Shown here: positions 7,268-60,194 of the stretch, one piece after another | Layout: every line of letters begins with the position of its first letter | How positions within the stretch are numbered: the first letter of the stretch is position 1 | IMG/VR virus record: IMGVR_UViG_3300021400_000468 | Coordinates: 36,469 to 100,468 of that record | Reading direction: 5' to 3' (one strand) | DNA: 64,000 nucleotides | Source of the DNA: a virus | Taxonomy: Duplodnaviria; Caudoviricetes | Translations under genes and position numbers: made by a program | Notes under the pieces: generated by a model | Database searches by the model: none | What the model was told of the DNA's origin: nothing | What the model saw: the letters and a program-made list of their open reading frames with translations, nothing else

Positions 7268-7277
7268 TCAAACCTCC

Positions 7278-23836: not shown

Positions 23837-24871
23837 TCAGGAAATACCGACGGCGATCATAGCGGACAGCGGGTAGTACACGATGACACCGGCGGTCCGG
23901 GATTCGCAGGGGATGACGGTTTCCAGATTCTTGGGCTGAGCGGAATACTGGCGGTAGGCCATGGGATTCTCAAGCGCGAGCTTGTCTTCCTTGTTGGTGA
24001 ACAGGAAAGCGACGCCCTGACCGTTGGAAGCGGCGGCAAAGGGGTTGGTCTCGACGGAATCGGCATTCAGCTCAGCGGTGGAAACGATATCCTTGATGTA
24101 GGGGCTGTTATCCAGCAGGAACTTCAGGATAGTCAGGCCGGTGTCCGGGATTCTCTTCGTGGCGATGTACATATACACGTCTGCGGGGATGCAGAGGGTA
24201 TCGGGACGCTCCACGTTCTTCGTGGTCACGGCGACGGTCTTCGCCATTCCGTTGATGTCATCGAGGATCTCATCCGGGGTCTTCTCAAACCACTTGGTCT
24301 TGCCGGAAGCGTTGGCAGGGATGGTGTACAGAGGGATGGACTGACCGGTGGACAGAACACCCATCAGGCCGGAGGTATCGTCGCCTCTCCACGCGATAGT
24401 GTTGACGGTCTTGTCGTTGGAGTACCGGGCGGCTTCGGCCTTTCTGGAATCGAGGTTCTTGTTCGCCAGACGGGAAGCTCTCATCTCCTGAACGGAATAG
24501 CCGTAGGACACGCCGATAGACTTGATCTTCGCCGTGGAGGGCTTGCCATCCACATCGGCTCTCGGCAGGTCATCGGAGTAGTTGTCGATGATCTTAGCGA
24601 GACCCTTCTTATCGTAGGAGTAGTAGGTGACGGTCTCAGCGCCCTCATCCACATCATGGGTGATCGGGAAGATCTGGAGGGCGGTCAGTTCGGGATATTC
24701 AACGTCATAGGATTTGGACTTGACGTAATCCAGTTCTCTGGCGAAGAATACGGACGCTTCCTCGGCGCTGTCGAAACGAGCCTGCTTGGAAGCCTGAATC
24801 GCTTCGGCGATGCCGGAATCCTTGATCGCACGAGCGTCCTTTCTGCTGTAGGACTTATGCTTGTTTGCCAT
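23837..24871 (-). CDS. Major capsid protein (DUF2184-like)
   Basis: FFARELDYV, DDLPRADV, YGYSVQE and RTAGVIVYYP motifs. Confidence 0.9.
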   Translation of the reverse strand: MANKHKSYSRKDARAIKDSGIAEAIQASKQARFDSAEEASVFFARELDYVKSKSYDVEYPELTALQIFPITHDVDEGAETVTYYSYDKKGLAKIIDNYSDDLPRADVDGKPSTAKIKSIGVSYGYSVQEMRASRLANKNLDSRKAEAARYSNDKTVNTIAWRGDDTSGLMGVLSTGQSIPLYTIPANASGKTKWFEKTPDEILDDINGMAKTVAVTTKNVERPDTLCIPADVYMYIATKRIPDTGLTILKFLLDNSPYIKDIVSTAELNADSVETNPFAAASNGQGVAFLFTNKEDKLALENPMAYRQYSAQPKNLETVIPCESRTAGVIVYYPLSAMIAVGIS

Positions 24872-25401: not shown

Positions 25402-27210
25402 TTAGTTCTTTTTGCCGTTGTTACGACGGCTGTTTTCCTTCTTGATCATGCCGTCGCGGTGTGCTTCCGCAGAGTCGCGATCCGTTCTGCTGTCGGCGTT
25501 GTAAGCCTTCTGGAACATCTGGCGTCTCTGATAGGCCGTATCCTTCTTGGTGGCCTTCTTCACGTCATCGACGCAGAGGCGGTACAGAGCATCGATGTAG
25601 GCCTCGGACTTACCGTCAAGACGGATGCCGGGGCGGACCTTCTTGATGATCTTCTTCTTCGCCGTGGGAATGGGCTGATACTCCAGACCATCAAGGTTCA
25701 GACGGGAACCGATCTTGGCGATTTCCATCCGCTTGCGAAGCTGCTTCTGGACGATGGCATCGATGGAATCCTGATTCATGCGGGAAGGGATGCAGTCATC
25801 GTCACCATCTTCCTCGAATTCCTCTTCTTCCTCGTCATCTTCATCCTCGGCGATTTCCTCATCATCGCCGGACTTGGGCGGGAAGGGAGCGGGAGCATCG
25901 GTATCCTCGTCTTCGTCCTCTTCGAACTCCTCTTCTTCCTCATCCTCATCTTCAACGATGTCTTCGTCTTCGTCATCGTCGGAATCGCAGTTTGCCTTAT
26001 CCTCGCAATCCGCTCCGTCCTCGTTGGTTTCTTCGGGATCATCCTCTTCATCGGAATCGGCCTGAGCTTCGGCACGGTCTTCATCTGTGAGGTTGGGCTT
26101 GGCGGCGGCTTCCTCCTTGCTGTTGGCAGGGATGGGATCGGTATCCGCATCGGTATTTCCGGAACCACCCTTACCACCAAAATCTCTCTCGGCAAGCAGG
26201 GTGTCGATGAGGTCATACAGGAAATCGAGGTCCTCGTCCTGTTCGGCAATCTGCTCCATTGCGCCGTTCATGTCTTCAGGATCACCCTTCTCATCTCTGA
26301 GATCACGGCGGTTCTTCACGGCCTGAAGTTTCTCATCCACGGGTTTGGACTGATCGGGAAGCGCAGGAGCTTCCTGCTCGGGCTTGGGGAGGCTATCCTT
26401 CTTAACGGGAACGGCTTTAGGATTTTCGACAGCCGGTTCCTTCGTGGGAACTTCCTCCTGAGGCTTAACGACTTCCTGGTCGGCCAGCTTAGCGGCCTTG
26501 GCCTCGGAATCATCCTCATCGGTCTTTGCAGCCGCACGTCTCGCCTTGTAATCCGCAATGGCTTTCTGAAGCTCTTCCTGACTCAGAATGCTGTCATTGT
26601 GAATCGCAGACTTCTTAGCGGCTTTTCTCTTTGCCATAGTCTTGTGTCCTCCTGTCATAATGGTTTTATCGGCCCGGCTGTCGATATTGAGCCGCGCCTG
26701 ATCACCTGCCCTTGCTTCCCGTACAACGGCAAGATGATTCACTCTAATATTGCGCTGAATGGCATCATACTTCTGCCCATTCCACACACCCGGCGTTTCC
26801 TCAAGGTCGAGGTTATAGCCGAGGGATAGTTCCTTATAACGGCACTCTTTCAGCGCATCGGTATCATGGATGACGATTTCTGCCCGAACATCGTCTCCAT
26901 CCTTTTCCCCTTCGGTCAGGATCGTGCCGATCTGATTGTCGTGGACGTTATCCGTATTGATCAGGCCAGCATCATGCGTAATGACGATTGGCTTGCCTTT
27001 ATACGACGCCAGACTTTCTGGATCAAACACATCCTCCGGAAGCCGAAGCTCCCGTCTTGTTGTACCGTCGGAGTTCTTATATTCAAAAATACCGGTGGAG
27101 GTCAGGATGGGCTTATCCTTCAAATACCCCTCTTCGGTATAATTGGCGCGAAATGCAGGAAAGCTGTCCAATCTGGTAACATGAACCAGCTTCATAGGTT
27201 TTTCACTCAT
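25402..27210 (-). CDS. Prohead protease-scaffold fusion (DUF2213-like) with long acidic region
   Basis: TEEGYL, GKPIVITH, ELSLGY and NHLAVVREARAG motifs; Asp/Glu-rich C-terminal half. Confidence 0.85.
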   Translation of the reverse strand: MSEKPMKLVHVTRLDSFPAFRANYTEEGYLKDKPILTSTGIFEYKNSDGTTRRELRLPEDVFDPESLASYKGKPIVITHDAGLINTDNVHDNQIGTILTEGEKDGDDVRAEIVIHDTDALKECRYKELSLGYNLDLEETPGVWNGQKYDAIQRNIRVNHLAVVREARAGDQARLNIDSRADKTIMTGGHKTMAKRKAAKKSAIHNDSILSQEELQKAIADYKARRAAAKTDEDDSEAKAAKLADQEVVKPQEEVPTKEPAVENPKAVPVKKDSLPKPEQEAPALPDQSKPVDEKLQAVKNRRDLRDEKGDPEDMNGAMEQIAEQDEDLDFLYDLIDTLLAERDFGGKGGSGNTDADTDPIPANSKEEAAAKPNLTDEDRAEAQADSDEEDDPEETNEDGADCEDKANCDSDDDEDEDIVEDEDEEEEEFEEDEDEDTDAPAPFPPKSGDDEEIAEDEDDEEEEEFEEDGDDDCIPSRMNQDSIDAIVQKQLRKRMEIAKIGSRLNLDGLEYQPIPTAKKKIIKKVRPGIRLDGKSEAYIDALYRLCVDDVKKATKKDTAYQRRQMFQKAYNADSRTDRDSAEAHRDGMIKKENSRRNNGKKN

Positions 27211-28318: not shown

Positions 28319-29169
28319 CTTCCTACCTCTTTGTCTCTTTCCGAATAAGCCGTGTCATAATCAGCGCTGTAAGGAATATTCTTCCGAACATCAGCCAAGG
28401 TCTGGTTCTTCACATTCCCGATCCCGACATATTTGTAGAAGATGATATCTTCTCTGCTATCCCGGTCGGGATTCCATCCCTGTGCTTTCGCACTGTCCTC
28501 ATATGCGGAATCCCATTGACACCGGCTCACCGCTTCAAAACCATTCCGGGCATAAAACTGGTGGTTGCCCTCATAGCTGTCCAACTTGGTTCCGCCGTTC
28601 TTAACAGCGTAGGCCAGAATATCATGCCCTCTGAGCATCCCGCCCTTGCCGTCTCCGGGGCCGACACAGACTGCAACTATATCCCCATTGTCAATGGCAA
28701 TGGTGCTTCCCCCATCCGTAATGTGCATCCGGGCATTGGGATGCCAGTCAGCCATCTCCTGACTGCTCATGGAGCTTACGCGCCACGCATTTTCCGGATT
28801 CTGGGATTTCTTCGCTGCCGCCAGTTTCTTGGTGAAGGTCTTTCTGCTTCCTGCGGTATTGAACTTCACCTTGTTCGATCCGGGATTCCCACTTTCGGAG
28901 TAGAAATCAGACGGGCTTTTGCCGGTTTTCTCTTTCAAGGCATCCCACGCATCCTGAGGGGTGGAGCCTTTCGGAAGGTTGATTCCAAACTTCTTACACA
29001 GACCGAACGCCAACCGCTGACTGGCGTCATACCGGGTCGCTCCATCCATATTATACACCTTATTACGGCTTTTGTCAAACCCGTCCGACAACTTTTTCTC
29101 ATCGGCGTTTAGCCGGGAAACGAGACGTTGATACCGGCGATTTCGATACTCCAGAATTTTGCTGTTCAA
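28315..29169 (-). CDS. Head-associated protein with C-terminal GNAT-like domain
   Basis: G..IL..AVKNGGTKLD.Y....FYARNGF resembles GNAT motifs A/B; N-terminal KILEY..RR..RL. Confidence 0.55.
   Translation of the reverse strand: MNSKILEYRNRRYQRLVSRLNADEKKLSDGFDKSRNKVYNMDGATRYDASQRLAFGLCKKFGINLPKGSTPQDAWDALKEKTGKSPSDFYSESGNPGSNKVKFNTAGSRKTFTKKLAAAKKSQNPENAWRVSSMSSQEMADWHPNARMHITDGGSTIAIDNGDIVAVCVGPGDGKGGMLRGHDILAYAVKNGGTKLDSYEGNHQFYARNGFEAVSRCQWDSAYEDSAKAQGWNPDRDSREDIIFYKYVGIGNVKNQTLADVRKNIPYSADYDTAYSERDKEVGR
29050..29078 (-). promoter_or_regulatory. Intragenic sigmaA consensus promoter
   Basis: TTGACA-aaagccgtaataaggtg(17)-TATAAT. Confidence 0.8.
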
Positions 29170-30127
29170 TGATCTTACCCCTCAACTTTTCCTCTGAACC
29201 TTCACTTACAGGCAGGTTCACCGTATCCTGATCAAATACAGGGATCGCCATGCAGCGACAACAAAAATCCTCGCCGGGATGACAAAACCGCCCGGTATAA
29301 ACCTTCCCTCTGGATTTGGTCATATACCAGCTCGGAGGAGGATCGTCCCATGAAAAGATCTTACCGTTATATTCACGGTGACTTTCTCTGACCCGGCTAT
29401 CATTTCTGGACTTCCATCTATAATGGGTACATCCGGCGTCGGTCTGCTGCTTCCGTGTAATCTGGGAGCAAAGAGTTCCCATCTGGTCTATTGCAAGGGA
29501 CTTGGCTTTTCGCTTCGACACTCCGAAGGACCTGACAATTTCATTCCGGATCTTGGTAATGCCCCAGCCCTCATAATAACCGTTCTGTATGATCTGGCGC
29601 ATGGTGGCAAGTGATTCCTCGGGTATGGATCGAACATAGCCAACATTCTCTTCGGTCCAACGGTCGATCAAATCCCCCCATGTTCCCTTGTTGTAGTAAT
29701 GACCATCAAGATCAACGCCGAAGGTTTTTTTGATGAGGTTTTTCCACTGTCGGACGTTGGTACCGTTTGCCCGCTTAGCCACCTTGCGGATGAAGACATC
29801 GGTCTTGAAATCATCCAGTTTTTCAGCAAGCTCTCTTTCCATCTTCCTGATGGTCTTGCTGAAATGTTCCGTAAAGCTGAGAATCCGGGCGTCCTCACGG
29901 ACCTCGGAGGAATCAACCCGGCTTTCACGAAAAATCTGAATGATTTCAGGAAGATGTTCCTTTATGATATCACGGGCCATATTCGCATGGCGCATAGCCA
30001 CGGAAGCATACTCCCTTTCTGCGGATTCAGGATACAAAAGAGTCCCTTGAACTCTTTTACCTCTTGTGAGGCCGGAGGAGCCTCTGTGGGCGTTTTTCCA
30101 AACCGGAACAGGTATTTTATCAGCCAT
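29099..30127 (-). CDS. MuF/SPP1 gp7-like minor head protein (no toxin extension)
   Basis: YRW....DSRVR.SH....GKIFSWDDPP...HPGEDFCCRC.A.P. Confidence 0.85.
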   Translation of the reverse strand: MADKIPVPVWKNAHRGSSGLTRGKRVQGTLLYPESAEREYASVAMRHANMARDIIKEHLPEIIQIFRESRVDSSEVREDARILSFTEHFSKTIRKMERELAEKLDDFKTDVFIRKVAKRANGTNVRQWKNLIKKTFGVDLDGHYYNKGTWGDLIDRWTEENVGYVRSIPEESLATMRQIIQNGYYEGWGITKIRNEIVRSFGVSKRKAKSLAIDQMGTLCSQITRKQQTDAGCTHYRWKSRNDSRVRESHREYNGKIFSWDDPPPSWYMTKSRGKVYTGRFCHPGEDFCCRCMAIPVFDQDTVNLPVSEGSEEKLRGKIIEQQNSGVSKSPVSTSRFPAKRR

Positions 30128-30219
30128 GCACAAAACCCTCCGAAAACATCCTTCTCGCTCCTCTCTAATACATCTGGGAATAAACGCCGTCCCTCAACCC
30201 TTATCCGAAACTATCGGAA

Positions 30220-30264: not shown

Positions 30265-30519
30265 TCAGGTATCGGATTCCATCATCTCGAAGGTAACGGG
30301 AAAGAGAATCTTTCCGTACTGACTGATCATCTTCTCTTCTTCCGCTTTCTTCTGCTTCATGAGGCGGTCATAGAACCACTGTTCAACCTCGCCCCATTCT
30401 CCGCCGGATTCGCTGGGATCATCCCCTTCATTTACGCAGCGGATAATGCGGTTGTGCCACTTGGCATCCTTCTCGCAGAACTCACTCCAGATCTTGGGAT
30501 CGACTTTTTCGTTTTCCAT
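30265..30519 (-). CDS. Small acidic protein, putative antitoxin/immunity
   Basis: AAGGAGG RBS at the zeta stop codon; 84 aa. Confidence 0.55.
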   Translation of the reverse strand: MENEKVDPKIWSEFCEKDAKWHNRIIRCVNEGDDPSESGGEWGEVEQWFYDRLMKQKKAEEEKMISQYGKILFPVTFEMMESDT

Positions 30520-30529
30520 GCTTTCCTCC

Positions 30530-31921
30530 TTAGTCATGGATTTCAACCTCACCCTTGTCGTTAATCACATAACGACCGGGTGTACGGCTCTTGTCAAGAA
30601 ATGCTCTGAGCTTATCCTTATCCACGGCGGTAATGGGCTTTCCTCCACCACCGGTGGCAATCAGAACAGGCTCGGATCCCATCGGGCCGCTGTTGTCATA
30701 CAGGCTGAACTCATCAAAATACTGAGCACACGCAACCGATGTATCGGTAACGGCTCCATGAATCTTTCTGACTTCATCCTCGGCAACAAGGCGGGGCGGA
30801 ACCTTACTTCTACCGGCTTCGTATTCAGCCTTGGCATGTTCATACCGACCCTGATTTCTCTTGAGAGCTTCTTCAATATCAAGGGTCATGTAGGAACCCA
30901 CCGCTCTGCACCCTGCGGCATGAGCCTGATCAATCTTCTTCTTCAGGCTCTTTACGCTTCCGTCGCCAGTTCCATCATAAACCGCATTCAAACCGGAATC
31001 CAGCGTTGCGGAATACAGGGACTTGGCAAGACCAGAGCTTTCCTCGTGATAATACCCGGCAGCTTTGGTGGACTTGGAAGCCATATCCTCATAACCGGGA
31101 AGCGCGGCTTTCATCTCATCCGGGTCAATTCCCACGCAGGAATTTTCGGGAAGAGCTTTTTCAGCCATCTTTCTCAGCCTTGACTTACCGGAAGCAGGTC
31201 CGCCGCCGAGAATCGTAACGACCCTCTGTCCTTCGGGCTGAGGAATCTTCCCTTCCAACTTATCACGGATAATCTCTCTGTGAACCTCCTGACGCTCTCT
31301 CGTGAAGTTTCCGTTCTTATCCAGATACTTCTTCGCGGAGTTGGGCTTGGTCTCGGTTCGGCAGTCATCGGCATTCACCGGCTTGCTCGAAATGCTCTCC
31401 CTACTAAGAGGAGTCCCGACCTTAACCGGAGAGGTCTTTCCCTGCTTCGCCCCGGAAGCGGTACTTCCAACACCAGCGGAAGCCCCGGAAGAACCGGAAG
31501 ATCCGGAAGAACTCTTCTTACTCTCAGCGTTCTTCTTGGCCTCGGCCTTGACCTCCTTGATATTCTTTCCGGTCATGGCATTAGGACCGGCGACCACTTC
31601 ACCCTCTTCATTCAAGGCAAAGTGCTTGCCGTTCTTCGTGGTTCTCCACTGGACGTCTTCGCCGTTTACCTGATCGGCATCAAACCGGCTTCCCGCCCCG
31701 CTATTATTATACCACATTTCGCCACGTTTGTCAATAGGAAGTTTATTGAAATCCCTATTTATTTCCGGGAGATTACGTTTGGCAAGCCGCTTGTTTCTGC
31801 GGTTATAAAACGCATCCACACTATCGGTGCGGACTTCCCCATCTCCAGACAGCCCGCGCTTGGCAAGTCTGGCATCCCGACGCTTCTTGTATTCGAGGAT
31901 TTTCTTGCGGTCATTCTGCAT
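30530..31921 (-). CDS. Head-associated protein with C-terminal zeta-toxin-like P-loop kinase
   Basis: LGGGPASGKS, IDPDEMK, HEESS, DGTG and LYDNSG motifs. Confidence 0.8.
   Translation of the reverse strand: MQNDRKKILEYKKRRDARLAKRGLSGDGEVRTDSVDAFYNRRNKRLAKRNLPEINRDFNKLPIDKRGEMWYNNSGAGSRFDADQVNGEDVQWRTTKNGKHFALNEEGEVVAGPNAMTGKNIKEVKAEAKKNAESKKSSSGSSGSSGASAGVGSTASGAKQGKTSPVKVGTPLSRESISSKPVNADDCRTETKPNSAKKYLDKNGNFTRERQEVHREIIRDKLEGKIPQPEGQRVVTILGGGPASGKSRLRKMAEKALPENSCVGIDPDEMKAALPGYEDMASKSTKAAGYYHEESSGLAKSLYSATLDSGLNAVYDGTGDGSVKSLKKKIDQAHAAGCRAVGSYMTLDIEEALKRNQGRYEHAKAEYEAGRSKVPPRLVAEDEVRKIHGAVTDTSVACAQYFDEFSLYDNSGPMGSEPVLIATGGGGKPITAVDKDKLRAFLDKSRTPGRYVINDKGEVEIHD
31706..31734 (-). promoter_or_regulatory. 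Intragenic sigmaA consensus promoter (extended -10)
   Basis: TTGACA-aacgtggcgaaatgtgg(17)-TATAAT. Confidence 0.8.
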
Positions 31922-32340: not shown

Positions 32341-32598
32341 TTACTCGGAATCGGAGTCACCTTCATCCGGGATGATCTCAATGTCCTTGATCTCATCTTC
32401 CCAGAGGACAAGCCCCATATCATCATCGTCAAGAGAAACCATGATCGAAGAAAACGCACCGTCCTCACGGTCACAGTCGCCCCTGCCCTCATACTCATCC
32501 ACAAAACACTTGATTGTCTTTCCGTCTGTGGTCTTGATCACAGCATGATGATCAGTGGCATGCCACATGAGATTGTCGATTTCCTTGCCCTTATCCAT
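32341..32598 (-). CDS. Small acidic protein, putative immunity protein
   Basis: 85 aa, overlaps the portal-fusion stop by 8 nt. Confidence 0.6.
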   Translation of the reverse strand: MDKGKEIDNLMWHATDHHAVIKTTDGKTIKCFVDEYEGRGDCDREDGAFSSIMVSLDDDDMGLVLWEDEIKDIEIIPDEGDSDSE

Positions 32599-35377
32599 TC
32601 TTACCCTCTGCTTTCGCTTTTTCTTCTTTCGCCTTTTCGTCCAACGCTTCCTTCAACCTCTGTTTATAATCCTTCGGTTTGGCGGGGACGAAATGACAGC
32701 CATCTTTTGCATAATGCACCGTCATACGATCCGTTTTAAGCCAGCAATCATGATCCCGATCATAGAAACGTCCAACAATCTTGCCAGCCGAGATGGTTTC
32801 CCGATAACAGGTATTACTGTCCGGCTTTCCATATGAAACACCATTTCCGTGATTTTGACTCAATATACTCTGAAGCTCTTTATCACTTACCGTGGTGTAG
32901 CTCGGAGGATTCCCATCTTTAATGCGCTGGTTATATTCGGCAGAGTCTTTCCTGTGAGGATTCTGCTTCTTCTTGTTCAGCCTATCGCTCACTATGCCAG
33001 ACGCAATTACGTAATCAAGCTGCTTGGACGGAATCTTTACGGGAGGATCATCCTGATATGATGGCGAACCTTTATTTGAAGATCCTCCTACCGATCCAGG
33101 TCTACCTCCATGTCCGAAGTTCCCGCTTCCGGGGCCTCCATCCATACTTATTATACCACCTTCTTCGTCAATTGTCAATATCTCAGACAACTTTTCAAAC
33201 AAAAGGTTCATGGATATTTTGAAGGGGCCAAACAGGTTATGACTGAATATATCGGGGATGGTACGGAACCGCTGATTATCCATTTCAAAATCGGCGGTAA
33301 TCATCTCACCCTCATACTCAGTGCAGAAGAACACAGCGGGAATAAGACCAGTATCCTCTTCAAAATCACCAAGACCGATCAACTTCAGGTTCAAGGGGGT
33401 AATGCCAAACTCTTCCTGCGTTTCCCGGACCGCAGCATCAGTTAGAGATTCACCGGGTTCCACATGACCACCGGGACCACAGAGCTGACCGAAGTGATCG
33501 ATATCCTTTCTGGTTCCGGTCAGGATCTTCATCTGCTTAAGATTCAGGACGAACACACCGACCGAACGGATACGTCGGAGAATGTCATCGTCCAACCACT
33601 CCTCGCTGGTCACATCTTCGACGGGATGGACAAGATCGGATTCGACAGCAGGAGAATCATCCTGTGATCCAGAGGCATCGTCTTCATGATCAGGTTCTTC
33701 TTCCTGATCAACCTCTTCTTGTACAGCCTCTTCTACCTGCTCAACCTCTTCCTGATCCTGCGGGAGTTTGGTAGCTTCGGGGGCGGATTCGGGGGCATTG
33801 CCGTATTCGGCATAATCATCGAAGTCGCCCTGTTCCATGAGATGACCGTCACCCTGAGCGGGTTGAGGAGCGACGCCCATCTGCGGAGCGGCACCTCCCA
33901 TGGCTTCCATACCGCCCATGCCACCTTCACCACCCTCTGCTCCCTGCTGACCCTGCGGTGCGCTTTCCATAAGCTCTTCTTCAGACATATCGTCGAGCAT
34001 GGATTCCACATCAAGATCATCGGGTTTGCCGAGGCCAACACGGACTTCTTTAGGATCGAGGACTTCCATACCGACATAGGTATTGGCAATGTTGGCACGG
34101 GTAAGCTCGTTCTGGAGCTTGGAGGATTCAAGCTGAACCTCTTCCGTCTCGGACATGGACCAAAGCGGATTGAAGGAAACTTTGAACTCCGGAACCTTCT
34201 CCACTTCCCCGGTATGCAGACCCGCCGCAAAAATCACGGAAAGCAGATACCGAAGGTTGGAGCGGAGCATCCTCTTCTGGATCCGTTCCACATAGTTATA
34301 GTAGTTCTCAAAGTCACTTTCACCGGTGGCATTCATACCGGCGGGAGAACGACCAAACAGAATGGTTTGGGGAATTGAGGTAATGGCCGAAAGCCAATTG
34401 CAAGAGGCATCGATTACTTCTTGCACTCCGGTGAATCCAAACGTCTGGAAGCTGTAATCCTCACCCTCTGCATCAATCGTAATGGAATTCAGAAGTCCGC
34501 GCGCAGTATCAATGGCCTCCAGTCTGCGGAGGACCTTATCCTCACCCTCTTCGGTTGCCAACAGGGCGGCGAGGTCCTTCATCCGATATACGGGTTGGAC
34601 GGATTTGGAAAGCATCTTCGGGGCGCTCTCATGGGCTACCTCGGCATTGCGGATGGCGCGGTTAATCCGGACGTATTCCGGAATGCCCCAAAGCCTGTAA
34701 TTCTCATAGCTGGTGTTCAGCGGAAGCATTCCGTTTCTGAACGCCAGCACACGGCTGTCATGAACCCAGAAATGCCCCCCGGTAATGGGATTGTTAATTT
34801 CATACCATTCCGGCGTACCGAGTCTGCTTCCGCGAGTTTGAAACGGATCGTTGGGTTCATGGTCGTATATCGAGGCATAATCCGGATTGATACAGGAGCG
34901 GTCAAAAACAAGGATATCATCAATGGACCGGATCCTCTTCCAGTCCAGCGGCTCTTCAAGGCCATGACCATCGTTGATGAGCATAATGGCGAGGGAACCG
35001 CCGAAAAGCCGCGCCCACTTGATTCCGGTCATTGCCACTTCTTCCCAATCAAGCTCGTCAAGGGCAGATTGGTAGAATTCAATCAGGTCCTTATCTTCAA
35101 CATCATCCAGTTCAAAACCATGCTTGACGGCTTCTTCAGCGGGAGTGTCTATGATCTTGGCAAACAGGCCGTTGTTCTCGTAGAACATCTCCAGAAGCAT
35201 ATCATCCACTACCGGTTCAGGCTGATAACGGTAGGCTTCGGTATCGTCCTTTTTGGTTCCGTACCGATTGACCATATTGACATAGCCGTCAAACCGATGA
35301 AGGGGAATCGCATTCCCGGTCTGCTTGCGCAGGACGTTTTCATATCTGCGCATATCGAATGCCATATCTCTATCCAC
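32591..35377 (-). CDS. Portal protein (DUF1073-like) fused to a Nudix hydrolase and a C-terminal Ntox50-like toxin domain
   Basis: KIIDTPAEE, WARLFGG, IPQTILFGRSPAGMNATGESD; Nudix box GGHVEPGESLTDAAVRETQEEFG; KQNPH...GKIVG...TVHYAKDGCHFVP. Confidence 0.85.
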   Translation of the reverse strand: MDRDMAFDMRRYENVLRKQTGNAIPLHRFDGYVNMVNRYGTKKDDTEAYRYQPEPVVDDMLLEMFYENNGLFAKIIDTPAEEAVKHGFELDDVEDKDLIEFYQSALDELDWEEVAMTGIKWARLFGGSLAIMLINDGHGLEEPLDWKRIRSIDDILVFDRSCINPDYASIYDHEPNDPFQTRGSRLGTPEWYEINNPITGGHFWVHDSRVLAFRNGMLPLNTSYENYRLWGIPEYVRINRAIRNAEVAHESAPKMLSKSVQPVYRMKDLAALLATEEGEDKVLRRLEAIDTARGLLNSITIDAEGEDYSFQTFGFTGVQEVIDASCNWLSAITSIPQTILFGRSPAGMNATGESDFENYYNYVERIQKRMLRSNLRYLLSVIFAAGLHTGEVEKVPEFKVSFNPLWSMSETEEVQLESSKLQNELTRANIANTYVGMEVLDPKEVRVGLGKPDDLDVESMLDDMSEEELMESAPQGQQGAEGGEGGMGGMEAMGGAAPQMGVAPQPAQGDGHLMEQGDFDDYAEYGNAPESAPEATKLPQDQEEVEQVEEAVQEEVDQEEEPDHEDDASGSQDDSPAVESDLVHPVEDVTSEEWLDDDILRRIRSVGVFVLNLKQMKILTGTRKDIDHFGQLCGPGGHVEPGESLTDAAVRETQEEFGITPLNLKLIGLGDFEEDTGLIPAVFFCTEYEGEMITADFEMDNQRFRTIPDIFSHNLFGPFKISMNLLFEKLSEILTIDEEGGIISMDGGPGSGNFGHGGRPGSVGGSSNKGSPSYQDDPPVKIPSKQLDYVIASGIVSDRLNKKKQNPHRKDSAEYNQRIKDGNPPSYTTVSDKELQSILSQNHGNGVSYGKPDSNTCYRETISAGKIVGRFYDRDHDCWLKTDRMTVHYAKDGCHFVPAKPKDYKQRLKEALDEKAKEEKAKAEGKNG
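33150..33178 (-). promoter_or_regulatory. Intragenic sigmaA consensus promoter (extended -10)
   Basis: TTGACA-attgacgaagaaggtgg(17)-TATAAT. Confidence 0.8.
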
Positions 35378-35395: not shown

Positions 35396-36805
35396 TTACA
35401 GAAGATTATTGATGTTAAACTGCGCCCTCAATTCTACTTCCGCAAAGCCATTCGCGGAGGCATCCACCATATCCTTGAACTTCCATTCCGGGAAGTTCTC
35501 AAGCTGCTCCAGATATGCCTCATTCCAGTCTGCATGAAGAATATCGAAATTTCCGGCTTGCCACTGAGCTGCCATAGGCTCTGCCCGGGACTCCTTACTT
35601 CCGGATTCAGAAACCGCCGTAACATCAAAACCGGACAACAGCTTTATGTATGACTGCGCCTGTTCCTTTCCGGCCTGACCGGGGTCCTGCGGCAACCTGA
35701 TCCGAACACGTTTGAACTCGGCCCTGTCCTTCTGTGCCGTGAGACGGATTGTCTGGCGCACATCGGAAGCAGCCATCTGTTTATTGATAACGTCCGCTAC
35801 AAGGTAACGTCCGTTTTTTCTCTTTCCTATCAACACCCCGGCTGTATACGCCGCGTCCCCGTTCTCATCCTTTTCGGTGGCGGCAAGGTCCCAGCATCTC
35901 ACCCACTGGATCACATCATTCGGAATGACCTCAAGAATATTGCCAAGCTGTGTGCGCTTGAAATACAGACCGGCACTCGGCTTGATCTTCCAGTTTCCGT
36001 AAAGAAGACGCTCCCTTTCCACAATGGACAGGGATTTCAGGTTTGCCAGATAGCTTGGGTTGACCTTCAGGAGTTCCTTATTGTCATAGATTGAAGAGGC
36101 AATAAAGGTAACGGATTTCGGCTCTTCCCTCTCTTCCGTGGTTTTGAGGTCGAACTGCTTCCACAACTCCGTTCGGCTGTCGGCCCAATACAGTTGCTCG
36201 TCACGACGGATGAACCACCTCTTGACGCCGCTTCTTTCCTGAATGGCATAACCGGAATCCTGATCAATCCACCACGAAATAAACTCCGCGACCCATGAAT
36301 TGGCGTCCGGGTTGCAAGTGGCGCGAACAAAGGGCTTTACGCCGCAGGTACTACGGTTACGGGACAGCATGTAGAAAAACTGACGCTCAGAAAAATGGGT
36401 AAGCTCATCCCAACAGATTTCCGCTATCTGCGAACCCTGCCAATTATGGACGGCATCATCTCTGTCCAAGTGGGCGAACTTTACTCTTCCGAGAATTTCC
36501 CCCTCCGGACTTCTGAACATCCACGACCCATCGCCGCCTCTCTTCTCGGCTCCGGGAATACTGTGGTATATCTTGTCGGCTTCATCCCAAAGACCGCCTT
36601 GGCTGAAGATCTGATTGTAGTTCTTACGAAAGATGGTACAGGTAAACCCCGGAACGTTTTTGTACCGCAGGGGAGTAAGCAAAAGGCCGTAGCTCTTCCC
36701 TCCACCGGCGGAACCGCCATAAATGCAGATGTCAGCGCTTGTGGCAAGAAATCGTTCCTGCGGTCCGGGCTGAGGCTTGATAATCATTGTTTCTTTTCCA
36801 GCCAT
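35396..36805 (-). CDS. terL: Terminase large subunit
   Basis: PQPGPQ, YGGSAGGGKS Walker A, WDELTHF Walker B, WDLA and DMVDA nuclease motifs. Confidence 0.92.
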   Translation of the reverse strand: MAGKETMIIKPQPGPQERFLATSADICIYGGSAGGGKSYGLLLTPLRYKNVPGFTCTIFRKNYNQIFSQGGLWDEADKIYHSIPGAEKRGGDGSWMFRSPEGEILGRVKFAHLDRDDAVHNWQGSQIAEICWDELTHFSERQFFYMLSRNRSTCGVKPFVRATCNPDANSWVAEFISWWIDQDSGYAIQERSGVKRWFIRRDEQLYWADSRTELWKQFDLKTTEEREEPKSVTFIASSIYDNKELLKVNPSYLANLKSLSIVERERLLYGNWKIKPSAGLYFKRTQLGNILEVIPNDVIQWVRCWDLAATEKDENGDAAYTAGVLIGKRKNGRYLVADVINKQMAASDVRQTIRLTAQKDRAEFKRVRIRLPQDPGQAGKEQAQSYIKLLSGFDVTAVSESGSKESRAEPMAAQWQAGNFDILHADWNEAYLEQLENFPEWKFKDMVDASANGFAEVELRAQFNINNLL

Positions 36806-37234: not shown

Positions 37235-37924
37235 TTACTTGATCGCTAACCATCCGGCGAAGTTCAGGTATCTCCAGAAGCAGTCCACTTTGGAGAATCC
37301 GGTGGTGCGAAGAAGGTCCTCATTCCAATGGGCGGTAATGGGAACCAAAACACCCTCAAGGCTTTTCCGCTTCGCGGCGATCTGTTCCTGCGTATACAGG
37401 TTGTCTGCCTTGATCTGGTAGTATTCGGTCACGAGAACGTCATCAATCTCGTCGGTATTGCCGAGGACCTTTTCCACCATAATCAAAGCACCACCGGGAA
37501 CCAGCCGGTCATAGGCACTCCGGACAATCTTCTGACGGTATTCTATCGGCGTGAACTGAAGCGTCAGAATGCTGAGAATCAGACTGCATTCAACTTCCGG
37601 AAGACCCTTCGTAATATCATACAGCCTTGCATCAATATAACCGAACCTCTTCTTCAGTTCCTCAATCATAGGCTCGCTTACATCAAGACACACATAACCG
37701 AAATCGTCTCCAAACTTCCGGACAAACGGAGCAATGGCATTTCCATTACTGCACCCGATATCCATGATGGTTGTATTCGGCTTCAGGTAATGACATCCGA
37801 TCTTTGTGACCAGCTCCCGCATATCGTTATATCCGGGAATGGAACGCTCCAGCATTTCATCGAAACAGTCAGTCACTTCCTGATCAAATTTCCATTTTCC
37901 ATCGGGCATGACCTGATCCTTCAT
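37235..37924 (-). CDS. cmoA: CmoA-like carboxy-S-adenosylmethionine synthase
   Basis: WKFD.EV...FDEM..RSIPGY, DIGCS.G, LTLQF, EK and AKRKSL motifs, matching E. coli CmoA. Confidence 0.8.
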   Translation of the reverse strand: MKDQVMPDGKWKFDQEVTDCFDEMLERSIPGYNDMRELVTKIGCHYLKPNTTIMDIGCSNGNAIAPFVRKFGDDFGYVCLDVSEPMIEELKKRFGYIDARLYDITKGLPEVECSLILSILTLQFTPIEYRQKIVRSAYDRLVPGGALIMVEKVLGNTDEIDDVLVTEYYQIKADNLYTQEQIAAKRKSLEGVLVPITAHWNEDLLRTTGFSKVDCFWRYLNFAGWLAIK

Positions 37925-38769
37925 TTCTTCAACTCCTTCGCAATGTCATTGTACACGCCAATAATGGCCTTATGCTTCTTCGGATTGTATTTGCTTGCTA
38001 ACAACCTATCATGACATTCCCTCAATCGAGAATTTATCTGATAGCTATGGTCGGTCTGGTCACGATAATATGCCCCCTTCTTATAGTAGTCATCAAACGC
38101 CTTGATGCTGGCATATTTCGGAACAGGTTTATTGATCGCCGCAAGGGAGAACTGCCCAATATAATCGAAGATGGCTGGGGTATTGTAAAAGTCCGTGTTC
38201 TTCTTTCCAAACTGTCCGGCATAACGAGCGATATTCCCAGCGGAAAAATCCAGATCATCGCTGTAGCACTTCCGATATTTGGCTACGGCCTGATCTCCCC
38301 CATCATGAAACGCAACCTGCACCTTCCTCTGGGTACAGAAAAGGTCATCTCCACCGATCCCTGTAATTATATGATTTTCATCCATACGCGCATAAATATA
38401 CTTCCACGGAATCATGCACTGAATGATGGTCTTTTTTACGAGATGACAATACGGAATGACCTCCCGGATATCCCGGTACATTCTATCCACATCGGAAGGA
38501 ACACAGATTTCAGTCAACTCAAACCCAAAATCTTTTGCCAGCTTTCTGGATGATTTCAGATCTGCGGACAAAATGCCATCCATATAGAAGGTATAACAGT
38601 GAGGCTTCCGTCCGGTCTCCAACATGGAAAACAGAACCGTTATGGAATCCGTTCCGCCGCTCAACGCAAGGGCGGAAGTCCCATCCGGATCTATCTCCTT
38701 CACACGGTCAAGGCAGATTTGCCTAAACTTATCCGCGTCCTCACGCGAGAAATGCGTTTTCCATTCCAT
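37921..38769 (-). CDS. Asparagine-synthetase-like ATP-dependent amide ligase (synthetase domain only)
   Basis: PP-loop LSGGTDS and TGIGGDDLF; no N-terminal glutaminase domain. Confidence 0.75.
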   Translation of the reverse strand: MEWKTHFSREDADKFRQICLDRVKEIDPDGTSALALSGGTDSITVLFSMLETGRKPHCYTFYMDGILSADLKSSRKLAKDFGFELTEICVPSDVDRMYRDIREVIPYCHLVKKTIIQCMIPWKYIYARMDENHIITGIGGDDLFCTQRKVQVAFHDGGDQAVAKYRKCYSDDLDFSAGNIARYAGQFGKKNTDFYNTPAIFDYIGQFSLAAINKPVPKYASIKAFDDYYKKGAYYRDQTDHSYQINSRLRECHDRLLASKYNPKKHKAIIGVYNDIAKELKK

Positions 38770-39613
38770 CTTGTTTCAGCCTTTCGCTCAATTCCTCGGC
38801 GGCTACCGCATCTGCCGTAGCTACACCATACAGATAAACCACACCCAGCAGACATTTTCCCCTGTGATGATCGAGCTGAATGAAATCATGCTCTCTCTGA
38901 TCGTAAGGAAATTCCTCATGGTAATGTGCCTTGATCTGGTCGGTATAATCGGTATAGCTCGGTCGGCAATACCTGAACGATTCATCAAGATAATACCCGC
39001 AGTCCAAAGCCACAATCAGCTTCGGCCCCCACAGCTTATCAGCACCAATGCTCTCGGCCTTATCGCAGGTGGATACACAGGTAACCACCACATCGCACTC
39101 ATTGAGGAGCTGCATGGTATCACTGGTATCAACAGATACATTGCGGCAGACGGACATAAAATCGCCCACGTTCTTCGCATAATTGCGAGGGGATCCGCGC
39201 ACGACAATATCCTCAACCCCAAACGCTTTCTGGATCGCTATGCAGTTGGCGAGGTTGGTTCTTCCGGTTCCGATAAAGCCGACCTTATGTACTTCACCAA
39301 CATTCATTAACCGAATAGCAAGAGCTGTCATGGCGCCGCAGCGATATCTGGTCAGACCGGCATCGAAAAAACGTAGAGTCTTATGACCGTCATGAATATC
39401 GATGATCTCACTGGTCTCTCCACTCTCATCATCGATGGAGATCACCTTTTCTACTAAATTGCCCTTGACGGTTTTTGCGGACATATAGGTATCGGTTTCA
39501 ACAGCAACGCCGGAATCGTTCCTACGGCTTACATTCACTGATTTGGGATCGCAAAGGGAATCTGCGGTTCCGATCTTTGCGCTCCAATATTCATTGACAA
39601 ACCTTGAAAGCAT
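38741..39613 (-). CDS. Ornithine cyclodeaminase/mu-crystallin-like protein
   Basis: DAGLTRYRCGA..ALA followed by Rossmann VGFIGTG; DVVVTC. Confidence 0.65.
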   Translation of the reverse strand: MLSRFVNEYWSAKIGTADSLCDPKSVNVSRRNDSGVAVETDTYMSAKTVKGNLVEKVISIDDESGETSEIIDIHDGHKTLRFFDAGLTRYRCGAMTALAIRLMNVGEVHKVGFIGTGRTNLANCIAIQKAFGVEDIVVRGSPRNYAKNVGDFMSVCRNVSVDTSDTMQLLNECDVVVTCVSTCDKAESIGADKLWGPKLIVALDCGYYLDESFRYCRPSYTDYTDQIKAHYHEEFPYDQREHDFIQLDHHRGKCLLGVVYLYGVATADAVAAEELSERLKQDGMENAFLA

Positions 39614-39616
39614 GAC

Positions 39617-40714
39617 TTACTTTCCTATCTTATCCAGAATCTCAGTCTGTATGGTTTTGGAGATATGCATCATCATAACAGGGGGAACCATCCTTCCCGC
39701 TCTTTCCCACTTCTGACGGAAATCGCCGGTCAGTTTGAAATCATCGGGAAGGGACGTAATCCTCTTCAGTTCTTCAATGGTGAACTTCCGATCCTCCAGC
39801 GGGTGCATGTTTCCAGCAGAACTTAACGCGCCGCTCGAAGCCAGAACAGTGGAGCACGGGCAATACATGGATTCTCTGGAAAGATTGAACCATGAGCCGT
39901 TCATAACACTGGATCCCTTAACCGGACGCGGAGGATTCTTCGGGAGCTTTTTCAAGATCTGGGCCAGCTTCGTGGACTTGATCCCCTCGCGAAGCATATC
40001 GGCTTCTTCACGGTTATAGCTTACACCTTCAAAGGCATCTTTCAGCGTATAGTAATACGGAAGCGGTTTCGGGAAAACCGGATCCATATTCAGATCATTT
40101 CTCACCCCTACAAAAATGACACGCTCACGAGCCTGTGGAACACCAAGCCACTTTGAATTAAGAAGCTGTGCCTTGGCACGATATCCGCAGTTCTTCATAT
40201 CATTCAGGAAGATCTTGAAATACCCGATTGCGGTTCCCTTCACAAGACCGCTTACATTCTCGGCAACGAAGCACTTGGGCTGAAGATCATTCAGGAGACG
40301 GATATACTCGTAAAACAGGGTTTCAATCTGTTGGACCTTCCCATCGGAATAGTCACGTTCCTTCCCCCAGCCCTTCTCTCTTTTACCGGCAGTAGAAAAC
40401 GCACAACAGGGCGGAGACCCATCAAACAGATCAAGCTCTCCCTGCTTCAGTCCGGTACGGTCGAATATATCCTGTGCCTTGACCTGACGAATATCTCTCG
40501 TATCCAGATAGGCATCCGGATGGTTCATGCGGTATGTTCTCTGAGCTTCTTCCACAAACTCATTGGCCCATACGACATGATATCCTGCCATGCGATAACC
40601 GAGGCAGGAACCACCACCGCCGCTGAAGGTCGAAACGACTTTATATCCATTCCACGGAATCGCTTCGATCTCCTCCATGCTCGGCACTTTATAGGGGGGC
40701 TTAGTTCCACTCAT
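39617..40714 (-). CDS. C5-cytosine DNA methyltransferase homologue, probable carboxymethyltransferase
   Basis: FSGGGG (I), GSPPC (IV), ENV (VI), QARER (VIII); motif X reads GRMVPP instead of GN(A/S)VP. Confidence 0.85.
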   Translation of the reverse strand: MSGTKPPYKVPSMEEIEAIPWNGYKVVSTFSGGGGSCLGYRMAGYHVVWANEFVEEAQRTYRMNHPDAYLDTRDIRQVKAQDIFDRTGLKQGELDLFDGSPPCCAFSTAGKREKGWGKERDYSDGKVQQIETLFYEYIRLLNDLQPKCFVAENVSGLVKGTAIGYFKIFLNDMKNCGYRAKAQLLNSKWLGVPQARERVIFVGVRNDLNMDPVFPKPLPYYYTLKDAFEGVSYNREEADMLREGIKSTKLAQILKKLPKNPPRPVKGSSVMNGSWFNLSRESMYCPCSTVLASSGALSSAGNMHPLEDRKFTIEELKRITSLPDDFKLTGDFRQKWERAGRMVPPVMMMHISKTIQTEILDKIGK

Positions 40715-41201
40715 ATCCACACTCCGGACAAATCCATTTTACTGCCATCTCTTCCGTGAACTCCTTGAACTCGGGCGGAACCTCATCCTCTTCAACCTCC
40801 GGGGGTTCCTCTTCCGGATCATAATCCGCAGAATCACCGTCAAGGGAAGAGAAATCAAGGTCAAATCCCTCGAAGTCAAGCCCTTCCCGGTCGGTTTCCA
40901 GAAGCTCATAATCCCACGGGCTTTCATTGGTCTTGTTATCAACGATCCGAAGCTCTCGGATTTCCTCTTCCGTCAGGTTATCGGCGACCACGCAGGGGAC
41001 TTCATTCATCCCCAAATACTTAGCGGCCTGAAAACGGCATTCACCGATGACGATCTCTCCATCAACAGTAATTACGATAGGCTGCCGGAACCCATACCTC
41101 TGAATGGAGTTGGCAACATTCTTAATCTGCCTGTTGTCATGTATCTTCGCGTTCTTGCTGTACCCATGCAAGAAGCTAATGGACTTCATCTCAATTTTCA
41201 T
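40701..41201 (-). CDS. ParB/sulfiredoxin-like protein with C-terminal CxxC
   Basis: NAKIH, SIQRYGFRQPIV, LRIVDNK, CPECG. Confidence 0.8.
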   Translation of the reverse strand: MKIEMKSISFLHGYSKNAKIHDNRQIKNVANSIQRYGFRQPIVITVDGEIVIGECRFQAAKYLGMNEVPCVVADNLTEEEIRELRIVDNKTNESPWDYELLETDREGLDFEGFDLDFSSLDGDSADYDPEEEPPEVEEDEVPPEFKEFTEEMAVKWICPECGYEWN

Positions 41202-51435: not shown

Positions 51436-52626
51436 TTAATTCTCTCCGAGGAACGCTTCGTTCAGGATATCTGCATTCTCTTTGTCGGCCTTCTCAATCA
51501 CATGGGCGTAGATGTTGGCGGTTGTGCTGACCTGAGCATGACCGAGACGGCGGGAAATGCTCACGCTGTCCGCTCCGTTGAAGTACAGGATCGACGCCAT
51601 ACTGTGGCGGAACGCATGGGGATTGATATGGGGAAGGCCATGCCTTTCAGAAAACCGCTCCAGCCAGCGGTTCGGACTGTCCGGGTGCATGGGATTCCCA
51701 TTATCCTTCGTAAACAGAAAGTCCTCATCTTCATAACACATCCCAACACGGATCTTTTCGCTTCCCTGCCATGCCTTTAGCTGACGGAGCAGTTTCATGG
51801 TTCCGGACGGAACGGCAATAACACGATATCCCCTTTTGGTCTTAGGGGTATCCACATAAACGCCCTTTCCGGGAGTATACTGGATGTTCCTCTGGATTGA
51901 GATCGTATTCTTCTCAAAATCAATGTCAGACCACTTCAGGCCAAGCACTTCCCCACGCCTCGCTCCTGTAATCAACATGACATGGACAAGAGCTTTCCAC
52001 TTTATCGGCTCACCCTCCAACGCCTCCCTGATCGCTTCAATTTCCTCTGGCTGAAAATACCGAACATCCGCTTTTTCTGCTTTCGGGGGAATCACCCTGT
52101 CGGCTGGATTGATTGGCAACTGTCCTTCCATAACGGCCTCCTTCAAAACAGCATGAATCAGCCGGTGATATTCCAAAACGGTTTTTCCGGAGAGCTTACC
52201 TCCGGTCTTTTTATTCATTCCATCCTGACCGAGCCACGAATAAAACGAATTCAGAGTGTCAGGATGAATATCCCTGATCTTCATATACCCCATCCGTTCA
52301 TTGATCCTCTCAGCCAGCTCCCTGTATCGGGCAATCGTAGAGGTCTTGACCTTCCGTTCTTCCTTCAGATTGATTACATACTCGCAATACTGAGAGAAGG
52401 TATAACGGGTATCGGTTGCCATTCCCTCCTTGCAAGCCTTCTCATAATTAGCTGCAAAGGCCTCCGCTTTCTTCCGTGCGGTTTTCTCAGACCATCCCGG
52501 TTCCACCTTGAACGTCGTGATATAAGGCTTGAGCTGCTTTCCCTCATTATCCCGTCCGCGATGAACCAGAATCTTATAGCCGGTCAAAACCCCTTCCTTA
52601 TTTCTTCGCTCCTGAAGCGATGCCAT
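51436..52626 (-). CDS. int: Tyrosine integrase
   Basis: TGARRGEVLGLKW, PKT, HAFRH, LGHA..STT.NIYAH. Confidence 0.92.
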   Translation of the reverse strand: MASLQERRNKEGVLTGYKILVHRGRDNEGKQLKPYITTFKVEPGWSEKTARKKAEAFAANYEKACKEGMATDTRYTFSQYCEYVINLKEERKVKTSTIARYRELAERINERMGYMKIRDIHPDTLNSFYSWLGQDGMNKKTGGKLSGKTVLEYHRLIHAVLKEAVMEGQLPINPADRVIPPKAEKADVRYFQPEEIEAIREALEGEPIKWKALVHVMLITGARRGEVLGLKWSDIDFEKNTISIQRNIQYTPGKGVYVDTPKTKRGYRVIAVPSGTMKLLRQLKAWQGSEKIRVGMCYEDEDFLFTKDNGNPMHPDSPNRWLERFSERHGLPHINPHAFRHSMASILYFNGADSVSISRRLGHAQVSTTANIYAHVIEKADKENADILNEAFLGEN

Positions 52627-52750
52627 AATCTCACCTCGTTTCCTCGGTGATATTGTACCACGGATGATCCCCTCATTCAACGGTAATCATCCAGAAAAAT
52701 CATTTTTGTAGCCGCGCACAAGATTTCCGTTCGGAAATCTGTTTTTCTTA

Positions 52751-58983: not shown

Positions 58984-58986
58984 AAA

Positions 58987-59057
58987 CAGGGGATGAAGGG
59001 CTCGAACCTTCTCCGTGGGTTCCAAAGACCCATGTACTACCGTTATACGAATCCCCC
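58987..59057 (-). tRNA. tRNA-Gln(UUG)
   Basis: GGGGGAT/ATCCCCT acceptor; TGGGT-CTTTGGA-ACCCA; GAAGG-TTCGAGC-CCTTC. Confidence 0.85.
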
Positions 59058-59062
59058 AAATC

Positions 59063-59494: not shown

Positions 59495-59513
59495 TTGCTT
59501 TCCTCTTCATCAA

Positions 59514-59559
59514 TGGGGGCGGAGGGACTCGAACCCTCACGCCTTTCGGCTTCAGATTA
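59514..59559 (-). pseudogene. Orphan 3' half of a class II (Leu-like) tRNA
   Basis: AATCTGAAGCCGAAAGGCGTGAGGGTTCGAGTCCCTCCGCCCCCA with no matching 5' half. Confidence 0.7.
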
Positions 59560-59561
59560 TA

Positions 59562-59643
59562 TGGGGGATATGGGATTCGAACCCACACACCTTAAGGCAG
59601 TTGTTTTTGAGACAACCCTGTTTTCCCATTACAGCAATCCCCC
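59562..59643 (-). tRNA. tRNA-Leu(CAA)
   Basis: GGGGGAT/ATCCCCC-A; GTTGT-CTCAAAA-ACAAC; long variable arm; GGTTCGAATCC. Confidence 0.85.
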
Positions 59644-59647
59644 ATTT

Positions 59648-60190: not shown

Positions 60191-60194
60191 TTTT

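Follow-up and report, generated by a model that had tools for sequence, protein, structure and literature searches.

A phage portal protein carrying a Nudix domain and an exchangeable Ntox50 RNase cassette, followed by a candidate immunity gene

The locus considered here raises a simple question: why should the portal protein of a phage end in two enzymes? It lies in a stretch of 64,000 nucleotides (nt) of viral DNA (positions 36,469 to 100,468 of the IMG/VR record IMGVR_UViG_3300021400_000468, Caudoviricetes), hereafter the window. A single minus-strand open reading frame (ORF), 32591..35377, with no internal stops, joins a portal, a Nudix hydrolase domain and an Ntox50 toxin domain, and is followed by an ORF of 85 amino acids (aa). 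An earlier description made from the letters only (the sequence-only reading) had proposed this composition; the strand was not stated in it. We believe, with a probability of roughly 0.6, that the sole portal of this phage doubles as a carrier placing two enzymes in the capsid, that its extension is cut and the cargo injected, and that the 85-aa protein serves as the antidote.

The frame is open over 928 aa if counted from the GTG at 35377, as had been reported, but the product is likely to have 924 aa: this GTG falls within the AGGAG ribosome-binding site of the gene, the AGGAG lies 11 nt upstream of the ATG at 35365, and the database copy of the protein (924 aa) starts at the same ATG. We therefore take the gene as, probably, 32591..35365. 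The proposed domain-by-domain Pfam check gave three matches above the curated cut-offs: Phage_portal_3 (PF06381) at aa 63-422 (E 9e-71, 238.8 bits against a cut-off of 33.8, profile positions 4-353 of 357), NUDIX (PF00293) at aa 602-699 (E 1.8e-13, 51.1 bits against 21.1) and Ntox50 (PF15542) at aa 800-898 (E 6e-14, 53 bits against 22.2, profile positions 1-92 of 92). The three-domain reading is thus correct, and the glycine-rich linker DGGPGSGNFGHGGRPGSVGGS and the ending TVHYAKDGCHFVP (aa 886-898) are present as quoted in it. PHROGs assigns the protein to portal phrog_15528 (E 8e-164) as well as to Nudix phrogs; the portal domain matches the solved portals 9jlf, 9l01, 8hds and 8fvh (E 1e-23 to 7e-9) and is 52% identical to that of gp30 of the Faecalibacterium phage FP_Brigit. 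An AlphaFold2 model of aa 589-928, based on an alignment of 19 relatives, has a mean predicted local distance difference test score (pLDDT) of 82.7 and contains two confident domains, Nudix and Ntox50, separated by a disordered stretch (model residues 147-187, i.e., about aa 735-775).

The Nudix box GX5EX7REUXEEXGU is complete at aa 640-662 (about 33392-33460) with T at the first U position: G640 HVEPG E646 SLTDAAV R654 E655 T Q E658 E659 F G661 I662. These residues are invariant in the 19-sequence alignment. The earlier claim of an intact box is borne out, and the interval given for it (about 33400-33478) overlaps all but the last few bases. The domain is modelled in the alpha/beta/alpha fold of Nudix enzymes, mostly at pLDDT >85, and Foldseek relates it to small enzymes of the MutT/MTH1/NUDT15/RppH type (target-normalised template-modelling (TM) score 0.6-0.8, E about 1e-7). 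None of the equivalog models (MutT, RppH, NudE, NudC and others) comes near its cut-off on this domain. The substrate is not readable from the sequence; the alarmones or ADP-ribose-type signals suggested earlier may be the substrate, as one guess among several.

The residues conserved in Ntox50 are described as H, ..., H and HxVP (Zhang et al. 2012, PMC3482391). A solved member, the C-terminal domain of YxiD (YxiD-CTD), is by assay a metal-dependent tRNase with the active site His447, His521 and His528, and tRNA-Thr(UGU) is among the tRNAs cut by YxiD (PMC12700104). The Ntox50 domain considered here matches YxiD-CTD (9v8i_B) both in sequence (phmmer, E 1.8e-8) and, as a model, in fold (Foldseek, target-normalised TM 0.80, root-mean-square deviation 2.0 over 103 columns). 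The three histidines of YxiD align with H808, H888 and H895 of the fusion protein, which are invariant among the 19 sequences, and the H895-F-V-P form of the terminal motif is present. The Pfam score, the YxiD-like fold model and the three retained catalytic histidines confirm the Ntox50 assignment. Its description as a predicted RNase stands as far as the RNase is concerned and is too cautious otherwise, YxiD-CTD being an assayed tRNase. On these grounds, both the Nudix and the Ntox50 enzymes look active.

It could be objected that the fusion is an artefact of assembly or annotation, with a chimeric contig or a missed frameshift joining a normal portal to unrelated downstream genes. We find this hardly credible. 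The check for an assembly frameshift, recommended by the sequence-only reading, showed the frame open across all junctions, and the identical 924-aa fusion protein was recovered twice, from a Logan contig and from an ENA contig, i.e., in two independent assemblies. With aa 590-928 as the query, 641 database proteins were matched, and PF06381 occurs jointly with PF00293 in nearly all of the 120 matches listed. IMG/VR and the GTDB species genomes, when scanned, yielded 80 further loci each, those from GTDB being mostly prophages in gut or rumen Clostridia (Oscillospiraceae, Lachnospiraceae, Acutalibacteraceae). The same portal-Nudix layout is seen in a cultured phage (gp30 of FP_Brigit, 828 aa, annotated as 'portal protein'). 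Considering the two identical assemblies, the hundreds of independent contigs and the cultured phage, the portal-Nudix-Ntox50 fusion is no assembly artefact. No support for the objection was found. In the nearest genomic relative, a sheep-rumen Clostridia metagenome-assembled genome (locus L092, 78% identity over the Nudix and Ntox50 parts), the gene is broken across at least four reading frames (1036-4263) and the immunity-like ORF is intact; this is either a decaying prophage or an assembly error, and shows only that draft assemblies can break such genes.

How far the relatives resemble the fusion protein depends on how they end. In BLASTP comparisons with the retrieved relatives, those ending in Ntox50 align to about aa 901, and those with other ends only to aa 760-777. 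The portal of the closest relative, P0004, is 79% identical and its Nudix domain 68%, and the similarity stops at query aa 760. The acidic linker between these two domains is variable among the relatives, and P0004 has an insert of about 485 aa there. The break point of similarity is the peptide DGGPGSGNFGHxGRPGxxGGS, referred to below as the junction peptide. Beyond it, the listed relatives carry Ntox50, ADPrib_exo_Tox, ART, Zeta_toxin or PF15644 domains. Since the similarity ends at the junction and the C-terminal domains differ, the portal-Nudix part is a constant scaffold and the last domain a swappable cassette. The toxin and the small gene downstream of it are exchanged together, as a unit, at a conserved junction predicted to be disordered. 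As in polymorphic toxins, there are a conserved N-terminal carrier, a variable C-terminal toxin and a covarying cognate downstream gene; as in polyvalent proteins, two effector domains (Nudix and Ntox50) are placed on a portal within the head module. Neither the cassette nature (a swappable toxin with its immunity) nor the published status of the layout had been mentioned in the sequence-only reading.

The main support for the covariation comes from the gene that follows. In portal loci of the Ntox50 type, the next gene is an acidic ORF of 70-85 aa that belongs to the same family as the 85-aa ORF. The co-occurrence was tested in 78 IMG/VR-derived and 79 genome loci with hidden Markov models (HMMs) built for the purpose. 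The first Ntox50 HMM spanned the junction peptide, and about 16 false weak matches were excluded after the domain coordinates had been inspected. A full-length Ntox50 end was found in 12 loci, and an ORF similar to the 85-aa one comes next in 11 of them by HMM; in the twelfth (L114) the downstream ORF looks alike by eye. By the same HMM, such an ORF follows 0 of about 140 loci with other C-terminal ends. In the IMG/VR set alone the counts are 7/7 and 0/71, with a one-sided exact probability of about 4e-10 (a hand calculation that ignores shared ancestry). P0004, P0026 and gp30 of FP_Brigit share another C-terminal domain (BLASTP 5e-23 for the closest pair), and their next gene encodes a Cys_rich_CPCC protein. 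Because it follows 11 of the 12 Ntox50 portals and none of the others, the 85-aa ORF is probably the cognate Ntox50 immunity protein. The choice of 32341..32598 as the partner for a toxicity assay, made in the sequence-only reading, was a correct one; the start of the ORF overlaps the portal stop codon, and the ORF covaries with the Ntox50 ends.

Thirteen sequences of this family align well, and in the resulting model (pLDDT 85.8) a helix precedes a small barrel of five strands, which finds its best, though weak, fold matches in Sm/Hfq-like proteins (E about 5e-3). The 85-aa ORF belongs to no named family in Pfam, NCBIfam or PHROGs, its only match being phrog_1865 of unknown function. A word-based search returned only the ORF itself, and its relatives came from gene neighbourhoods. 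The toxin catalogue of Zhang et al. 2012 (PMC3482391) has no immunity family for Ntox50. In one related locus (L004, 8864-9355), two tandem immunity-like ORFs stand after the Ntox50 portal.

The junction peptide itself proved to be widespread. Counting a strict form of the motif gives 84 copies in 68 of the retrieved relatives, every one of them located between globular domains, and in the portal-Nudix family the motif is nearly always preceded by Asp-Gly. The form GGPGSGN[FWH]GHxGRxGxxGGS is present in the window at 33080-33142 (minus strand) and also in loci L007, L008 and L170. A profile made from 13 copies was searched against 1.84 billion cluster representatives and gave 3,996 proteins at E <= 0.001 and 710 at E <= 1e-10. 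A protein may contain up to 10 copies, with a median spacing of 224 aa, i.e., of domain size; among the best hits examined, the first copy lies within residues 1-80, after a short leader, in 78/148. The copy-rich proteins carry ART-PolyVal, ADPrib_exo_Tox, MuF, Zeta_toxin, PI3/4-kinase-like, 2H, Acb1, Fic, GNAT, ParB and similar domains; of three contexts inspected, two have their genes next to those of PF06381 portals and MuF. The invariant Gly, Ser and Arg are encoded by every synonymous codon available, and this is so even within one gene with seven copies; as these codons vary freely, the constraint is on the peptide and not on the DNA. We rejected a recombination repeat acting at the DNA level on the same ground. 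An AT-hook-like DNA handle formed by GRPG is unlikely, since the Pro varies (GRAG, GRKG, GREG).

No Pfam, NCBIfam or PHROGs family covers the junction peptide, and searches of the searchable literature with the motif strings found no relevant paper. A tblastn search with a 34-aa junction peptide gave no match among cultured phage records, the low-complexity filter having probably masked the query; a search for the junction region among shorter proteins scored only 5 candidates. The N-x-x-H in the motif may resemble the NPTH autocleavage site of FlhB/YscU. Tentatively, and with the odds rather against so broad a statement, we propose that the peptide is an undescribed general capsid-cargo signal in thousands of PF06381-portal phages, marking where cargo is cut free or handed over for ejection. 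In the present phage it would release up to 12 portal-borne tRNase copies for injection, with the phage tRNAs and the Sm-like immunity protein restoring translation.

A portal is a dodecamer with its C-terminal crown turned towards the inside of the capsid, so each procapsid would start with up to 12 tethered copies of the extension. The figure of about 12 copies of each enzyme per virion, given in the sequence-only reading, is accordingly an upper bound set by portal stoichiometry, valid only for an untrimmed extension. The portal remains in the capsid and is not ejected; delivery on entry, also suggested there, therefore needs a cleavage step, which had not been considered. We presume the following course of events. 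The extension would be loaded into the prohead as part of the portal and cut during head maturation by the head-maturation protease, the likeliest site being the junction peptide or its vicinity, with a further cut perhaps made in the acidic linker. Once free, the Ntox50 tRNase, possibly together with the Nudix enzyme, would exit along with the DNA and work in the newly infected host within the first minutes of infection, the former cleaving a subset of host tRNAs or other RNAs, the latter hydrolysing a nucleoside diphosphate linked to another moiety (NDP-X) or an RNA 5' end. In the producing cell, and probably also in lysogens, the co-translated 85-aa acidic protein would bind the RNase and spare late translation of the phage. 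A like course has been proposed for Nudix, 2H and BECR domains on portals and MuF (Iyer et al., PMC5512222, PMC9503650) and for MuF toxins (Jamet et al. 2017, PMC5576092).

Several points weigh against delivery by injection. We know of no experimental demonstration of cleavage, free-cargo packaging or injection for any portal fusion, and the portal itself does not leave the capsid. A single junction peptide is present in the fusion protein, behind the Nudix domain, so that this domain may stay tethered; the peptide, in turn, may be a cut site, a docking handle or an ejection signal. It is also counter-intuitive to inject a tRNase into a cell needed for phage translation, unless its target is narrow or it is quickly neutralised. 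As to the antidote, the assignment rests on gene order, covariation and predicted fold: the 85-aa ORF, compared with YxxD (9V8I chain A), gave no PDB sequence match below E 0.28, and YxxD is not among the listed fold matches of its model. The main rival makes use of some of the same facts. According to it, the extension stays on the portal for the life of the particle, and the enzymes act only in the producer cell before assembly, or structurally at the portal vertex (DNA retention, capsid filling), the fusion serving mainly for late co-expression. A portal that remains in the capsid and the lack of a junction peptide between portal and Nudix domain agree with this, and a late, co-translated immunity gene fits a need for protection inside the producer cell. 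We nevertheless consider it unlikely. The catalytic residues of both enzymes are strictly conserved in the family, which makes a purely structural role unlikely; the toxin cassettes turn over as those of delivered polymorphic toxins do; and in many unrelated cargo proteins the junction peptide follows a short N-terminal leader, where a linker would be purposeless.

Another explanation sees in the particles a weapon between bacteria or between phages and places the benefit with the lysogen population, not with the infecting genome: the tRNase would be carried into cells without the prophage and would kill or stall them, and lysogens would be shielded by the 85-aa immunity gene. The phage does have a tyrosine integrase, and its relatives are prophages in Clostridia genomes; the two tandem immunity copies of L004 are of a kind common at polymorphic toxin loci; and this model has been published for MuF toxins, MuF-Ntox50 included (PMC5576092). 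However, the immunity gene is inside the late head operon, overlapping the portal stop, with no sign of a separate lysogenic promoter (no further test for one was made), and the killing of an infected cell would abort the infection of the phage itself. As the sole purpose of the system we find it improbable; it overlaps with carriage and injection by the portal rather than excluding them.

The surroundings of the gene are those of a head module (Table 1). There is only one portal match in the whole 100,468-bp record, which CheckV rates as 100% complete; no terminal repeats were found at the ends of this record. The terminase large subunit gene ends 18 nt upstream of the fusion ORF, which sits between it and the MuF, protease and capsid genes of the minus-strand module; the order is terminase large subunit, portal fusion, 85-aa ORF, zeta protein, MuF, DUF2213 protein, cement protein and major capsid protein. 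The capsid genes of this module are a set of the E217/Pam3 type. The GC content of the Ntox50 cassette is only slightly below that of the neighbouring genes. Given the integrase, the phage is probably temperate, and the source is probably a temperate phage of about 100 kb from gut or rumen Clostridia. Its seven tRNA genes could matter if a packaged tRNase cuts host tRNAs.

Table 1. Coordinates of the fusion gene, its parts and the other features discussed (positions in the window)
Feature	Coordinates	Strand	Basis or remark
Portal-Nudix-Ntox50 fusion gene	32591..35377	-	ORF from GTG 35377; probable start ATG 35365, 924 aa
Portal domain, aa 1 to ~470, E217/Pam3-type	33968..35377	-	Pfam Phage_portal_3, solved portals, FP_Brigit gp30
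Acidic low-complexity linker, aa ~471-600	33578..33967	-	Differs between relatives
Nudix domain, aa ~601-735	33173..33577	-	Pfam, complete Nudix box, model, Foldseek
Junction peptide DGGPGSGNFGHGGRPGSVGGS, aa 746-766	33080..33142	-	Predicted disordered; similarity to other-cargo relatives ends here
Ntox50 (BECR-fold) RNase toxin domain, aa ~779-900	32678..33043	-	Pfam, phmmer, Foldseek, H808/H888/H895 and HFVP
Lys/Glu-rich C-terminal helix, aa 901-928	32594..32677	-	Sequence and model
85-aa acidic ORF, candidate Ntox50 immunity protein	32341..32598	-	ATG overlaps portal stop codon in ATGGATAA
Terminase large subunit	35396..36805	-	Terminase_6N/6C; phrog_979
463-aa protein, Zeta-toxin/AvrRxo1-like kinase domain, Arg-rich N-terminal leader	30530..31921	-	Likely second head cargo
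MuF head-morphogenesis protein, without toxin extension	29099..30133	-	Pfam, PHROGs
DUF2213/Pa193_gp24-type protein, long acidic tail	25402..27210	-	PHROGs name head-maturation protease; candidate processing enzyme
Major capsid protein	23837..24871	-	PF09950
Tyrosine integrase	51436-52680	-	PF00589, E 4e-31
Seven tRNA genes: Gln-UUG, Leu-CAA, two Met-CAU, Ile-UAU, Ser-UGA, Thr-UGU	58986-61857	-	

Some neighbouring genes deserve a remark. The zeta-domain protein and a 284-aa ORF after MuF have a common Arg-rich N-terminal leader, KILEY[KR]xRRxxRL, encoded at 31865-31900 and 29122-29157 (minus strand), respectively. Related phages have this leader at the front of ART, zeta and uncharacterised head-module proteins (L003 13269, L004 13933, L006 10857, L011 6481), and it may be a capsid-loading tag. 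The zeta-domain protein and an overlapping 95-aa ORF that follows it together span 30265-31921 (minus strand), and in relatives zeta is followed by an ORF of 72-83 aa; the two look like another toxin and antidote within the head module. The very acidic C-terminal half of the DUF2213-type head protease/scaffold protein contains DFGGKGGSGN (26155-26169, minus strand), which may be a degenerate version of the first residues of the junction peptide. Farther away, two ORFs at 1016-9251 (minus strand) probably encode tail-fibre or decoration proteins: one of 2083 aa has DUF6273 and matches CotH weakly, and the other, of 657 aa, is described by PHROGs as a Hoc-like head decoration. Upstream of the terminase genes, 37235-40720 (minus strand) encodes an S-adenosylmethionine (SAM) methyltransferase, an asparagine-synthase-like protein and a C5 cytosine DNA methylase, which may form a DNA-modification module.

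The novelty of the observation is lowered by the fact that portal-Nudix and portal-BECR fusions, as well as Ntox50 on phage head proteins, are already published in kind (PMC9503650, PMC5512222, PMC5576092); the fusion is one member of a large published class of head proteins with swappable enzyme cargo. We believe that three things are new: the link to an Ntox50 tRNase whose structure was solved recently, a candidate immunity family, Sm-like in predicted fold and strongly supported by covariation, and a quantified junction peptide. The locus offers a concrete case of the portal ring as a loading dock for enzymes; it extends known work and opens no new field. The cultured relative FP_Brigit makes the portal-Nudix layout accessible to experiment, and the junction peptide (about 4,000 protein clusters) could flag head-packaged effectors in uncultured phages and locate processing sites.

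Among known systems, the nearest are the Nudix domains fused to portals, MuF and capsid proteases, for which head packaging and injection have been proposed (Iyer et al. 2022, PMC9503650). There, as here, Nudix is fused directly to the portal in a late/head gene cluster. That work is a computational survey in which no member was assayed; it covers neither the junction peptide nor an Ntox50 cassette with its immunity partner, and it puts its fusions in the T4 NudE-like clade (ADP-ribose, FAD, Ap3A), which was not confirmed in our case, the best folds being of the MutT/MTH1/NUDT15/RppH type. The polyvalent proteins, with PBECR and 2H domains fused to MuF or portal among the portal-terminase head genes, follow the same plan of a multi-effector polypeptide, including BECR-fold RNases on portals (Iyer et al. 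2017, PMC5512222); their RNases belong to the PBECR clade, whereas the present one is Ntox50, and the main text of that paper mentions neither a linker nor a glycine-rich motif. In the polymorphic MuF toxins of temperate phages, too, a conserved head protein bears a C-terminal toxin that varies, Ntox50 included, and these toxins show enrichment in gut Firmicutes (Jamet et al. 2017, PMC5576092; Zhang et al. 2012, PMC3482391). Their carrier is MuF, with 1-2 copies per SPP1 capsid (PMC5576092); here the carrier is the portal, with 12 per head, and a constant Nudix domain is interposed. The YxiD-YxxD pair of Bacillus subtilis 6633 (9V8I; PMC12700104) and Neisseria MafB2-CT2 (8HHJ) have the same Ntox50/BECR fold and the three active-site histidines. 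YxiD is an LXG toxin, of a family typically exported by the type VII secretion system, whereas the Ntox50 considered here is on a portal.

The cultured relative, FP_Brigit gp30 (YP_009797051.1), has a portal 52% identical to ours, the same Nudix domain and a toxin-like C-terminal domain followed by a small ORF. Its C-terminal domain is not Ntox50 in the Pfam scan, the downstream ORF is Cys_rich_CPCC, and its junction is a different one, EADHPRDENGQFAEGEG, at aa ~670-690, before the C-terminal domain. The HPRxxxGxF-type motif of this junction presumably recurs in other phage head proteins. A parallel to the proposed mechanism is found in phage T4, whose internal proteins IPI-III and Alt have a capsid-targeting sequence that is cut by the prohead protease gp21, are injected with the DNA and act early (cited in PMC5512222). 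In T4 the address is a short N-terminal tag on separate proteins, whereas here it is a covalent fusion to the portal and the cleavage is only proposed; a gene named head-maturation protease by PHROGs is present.

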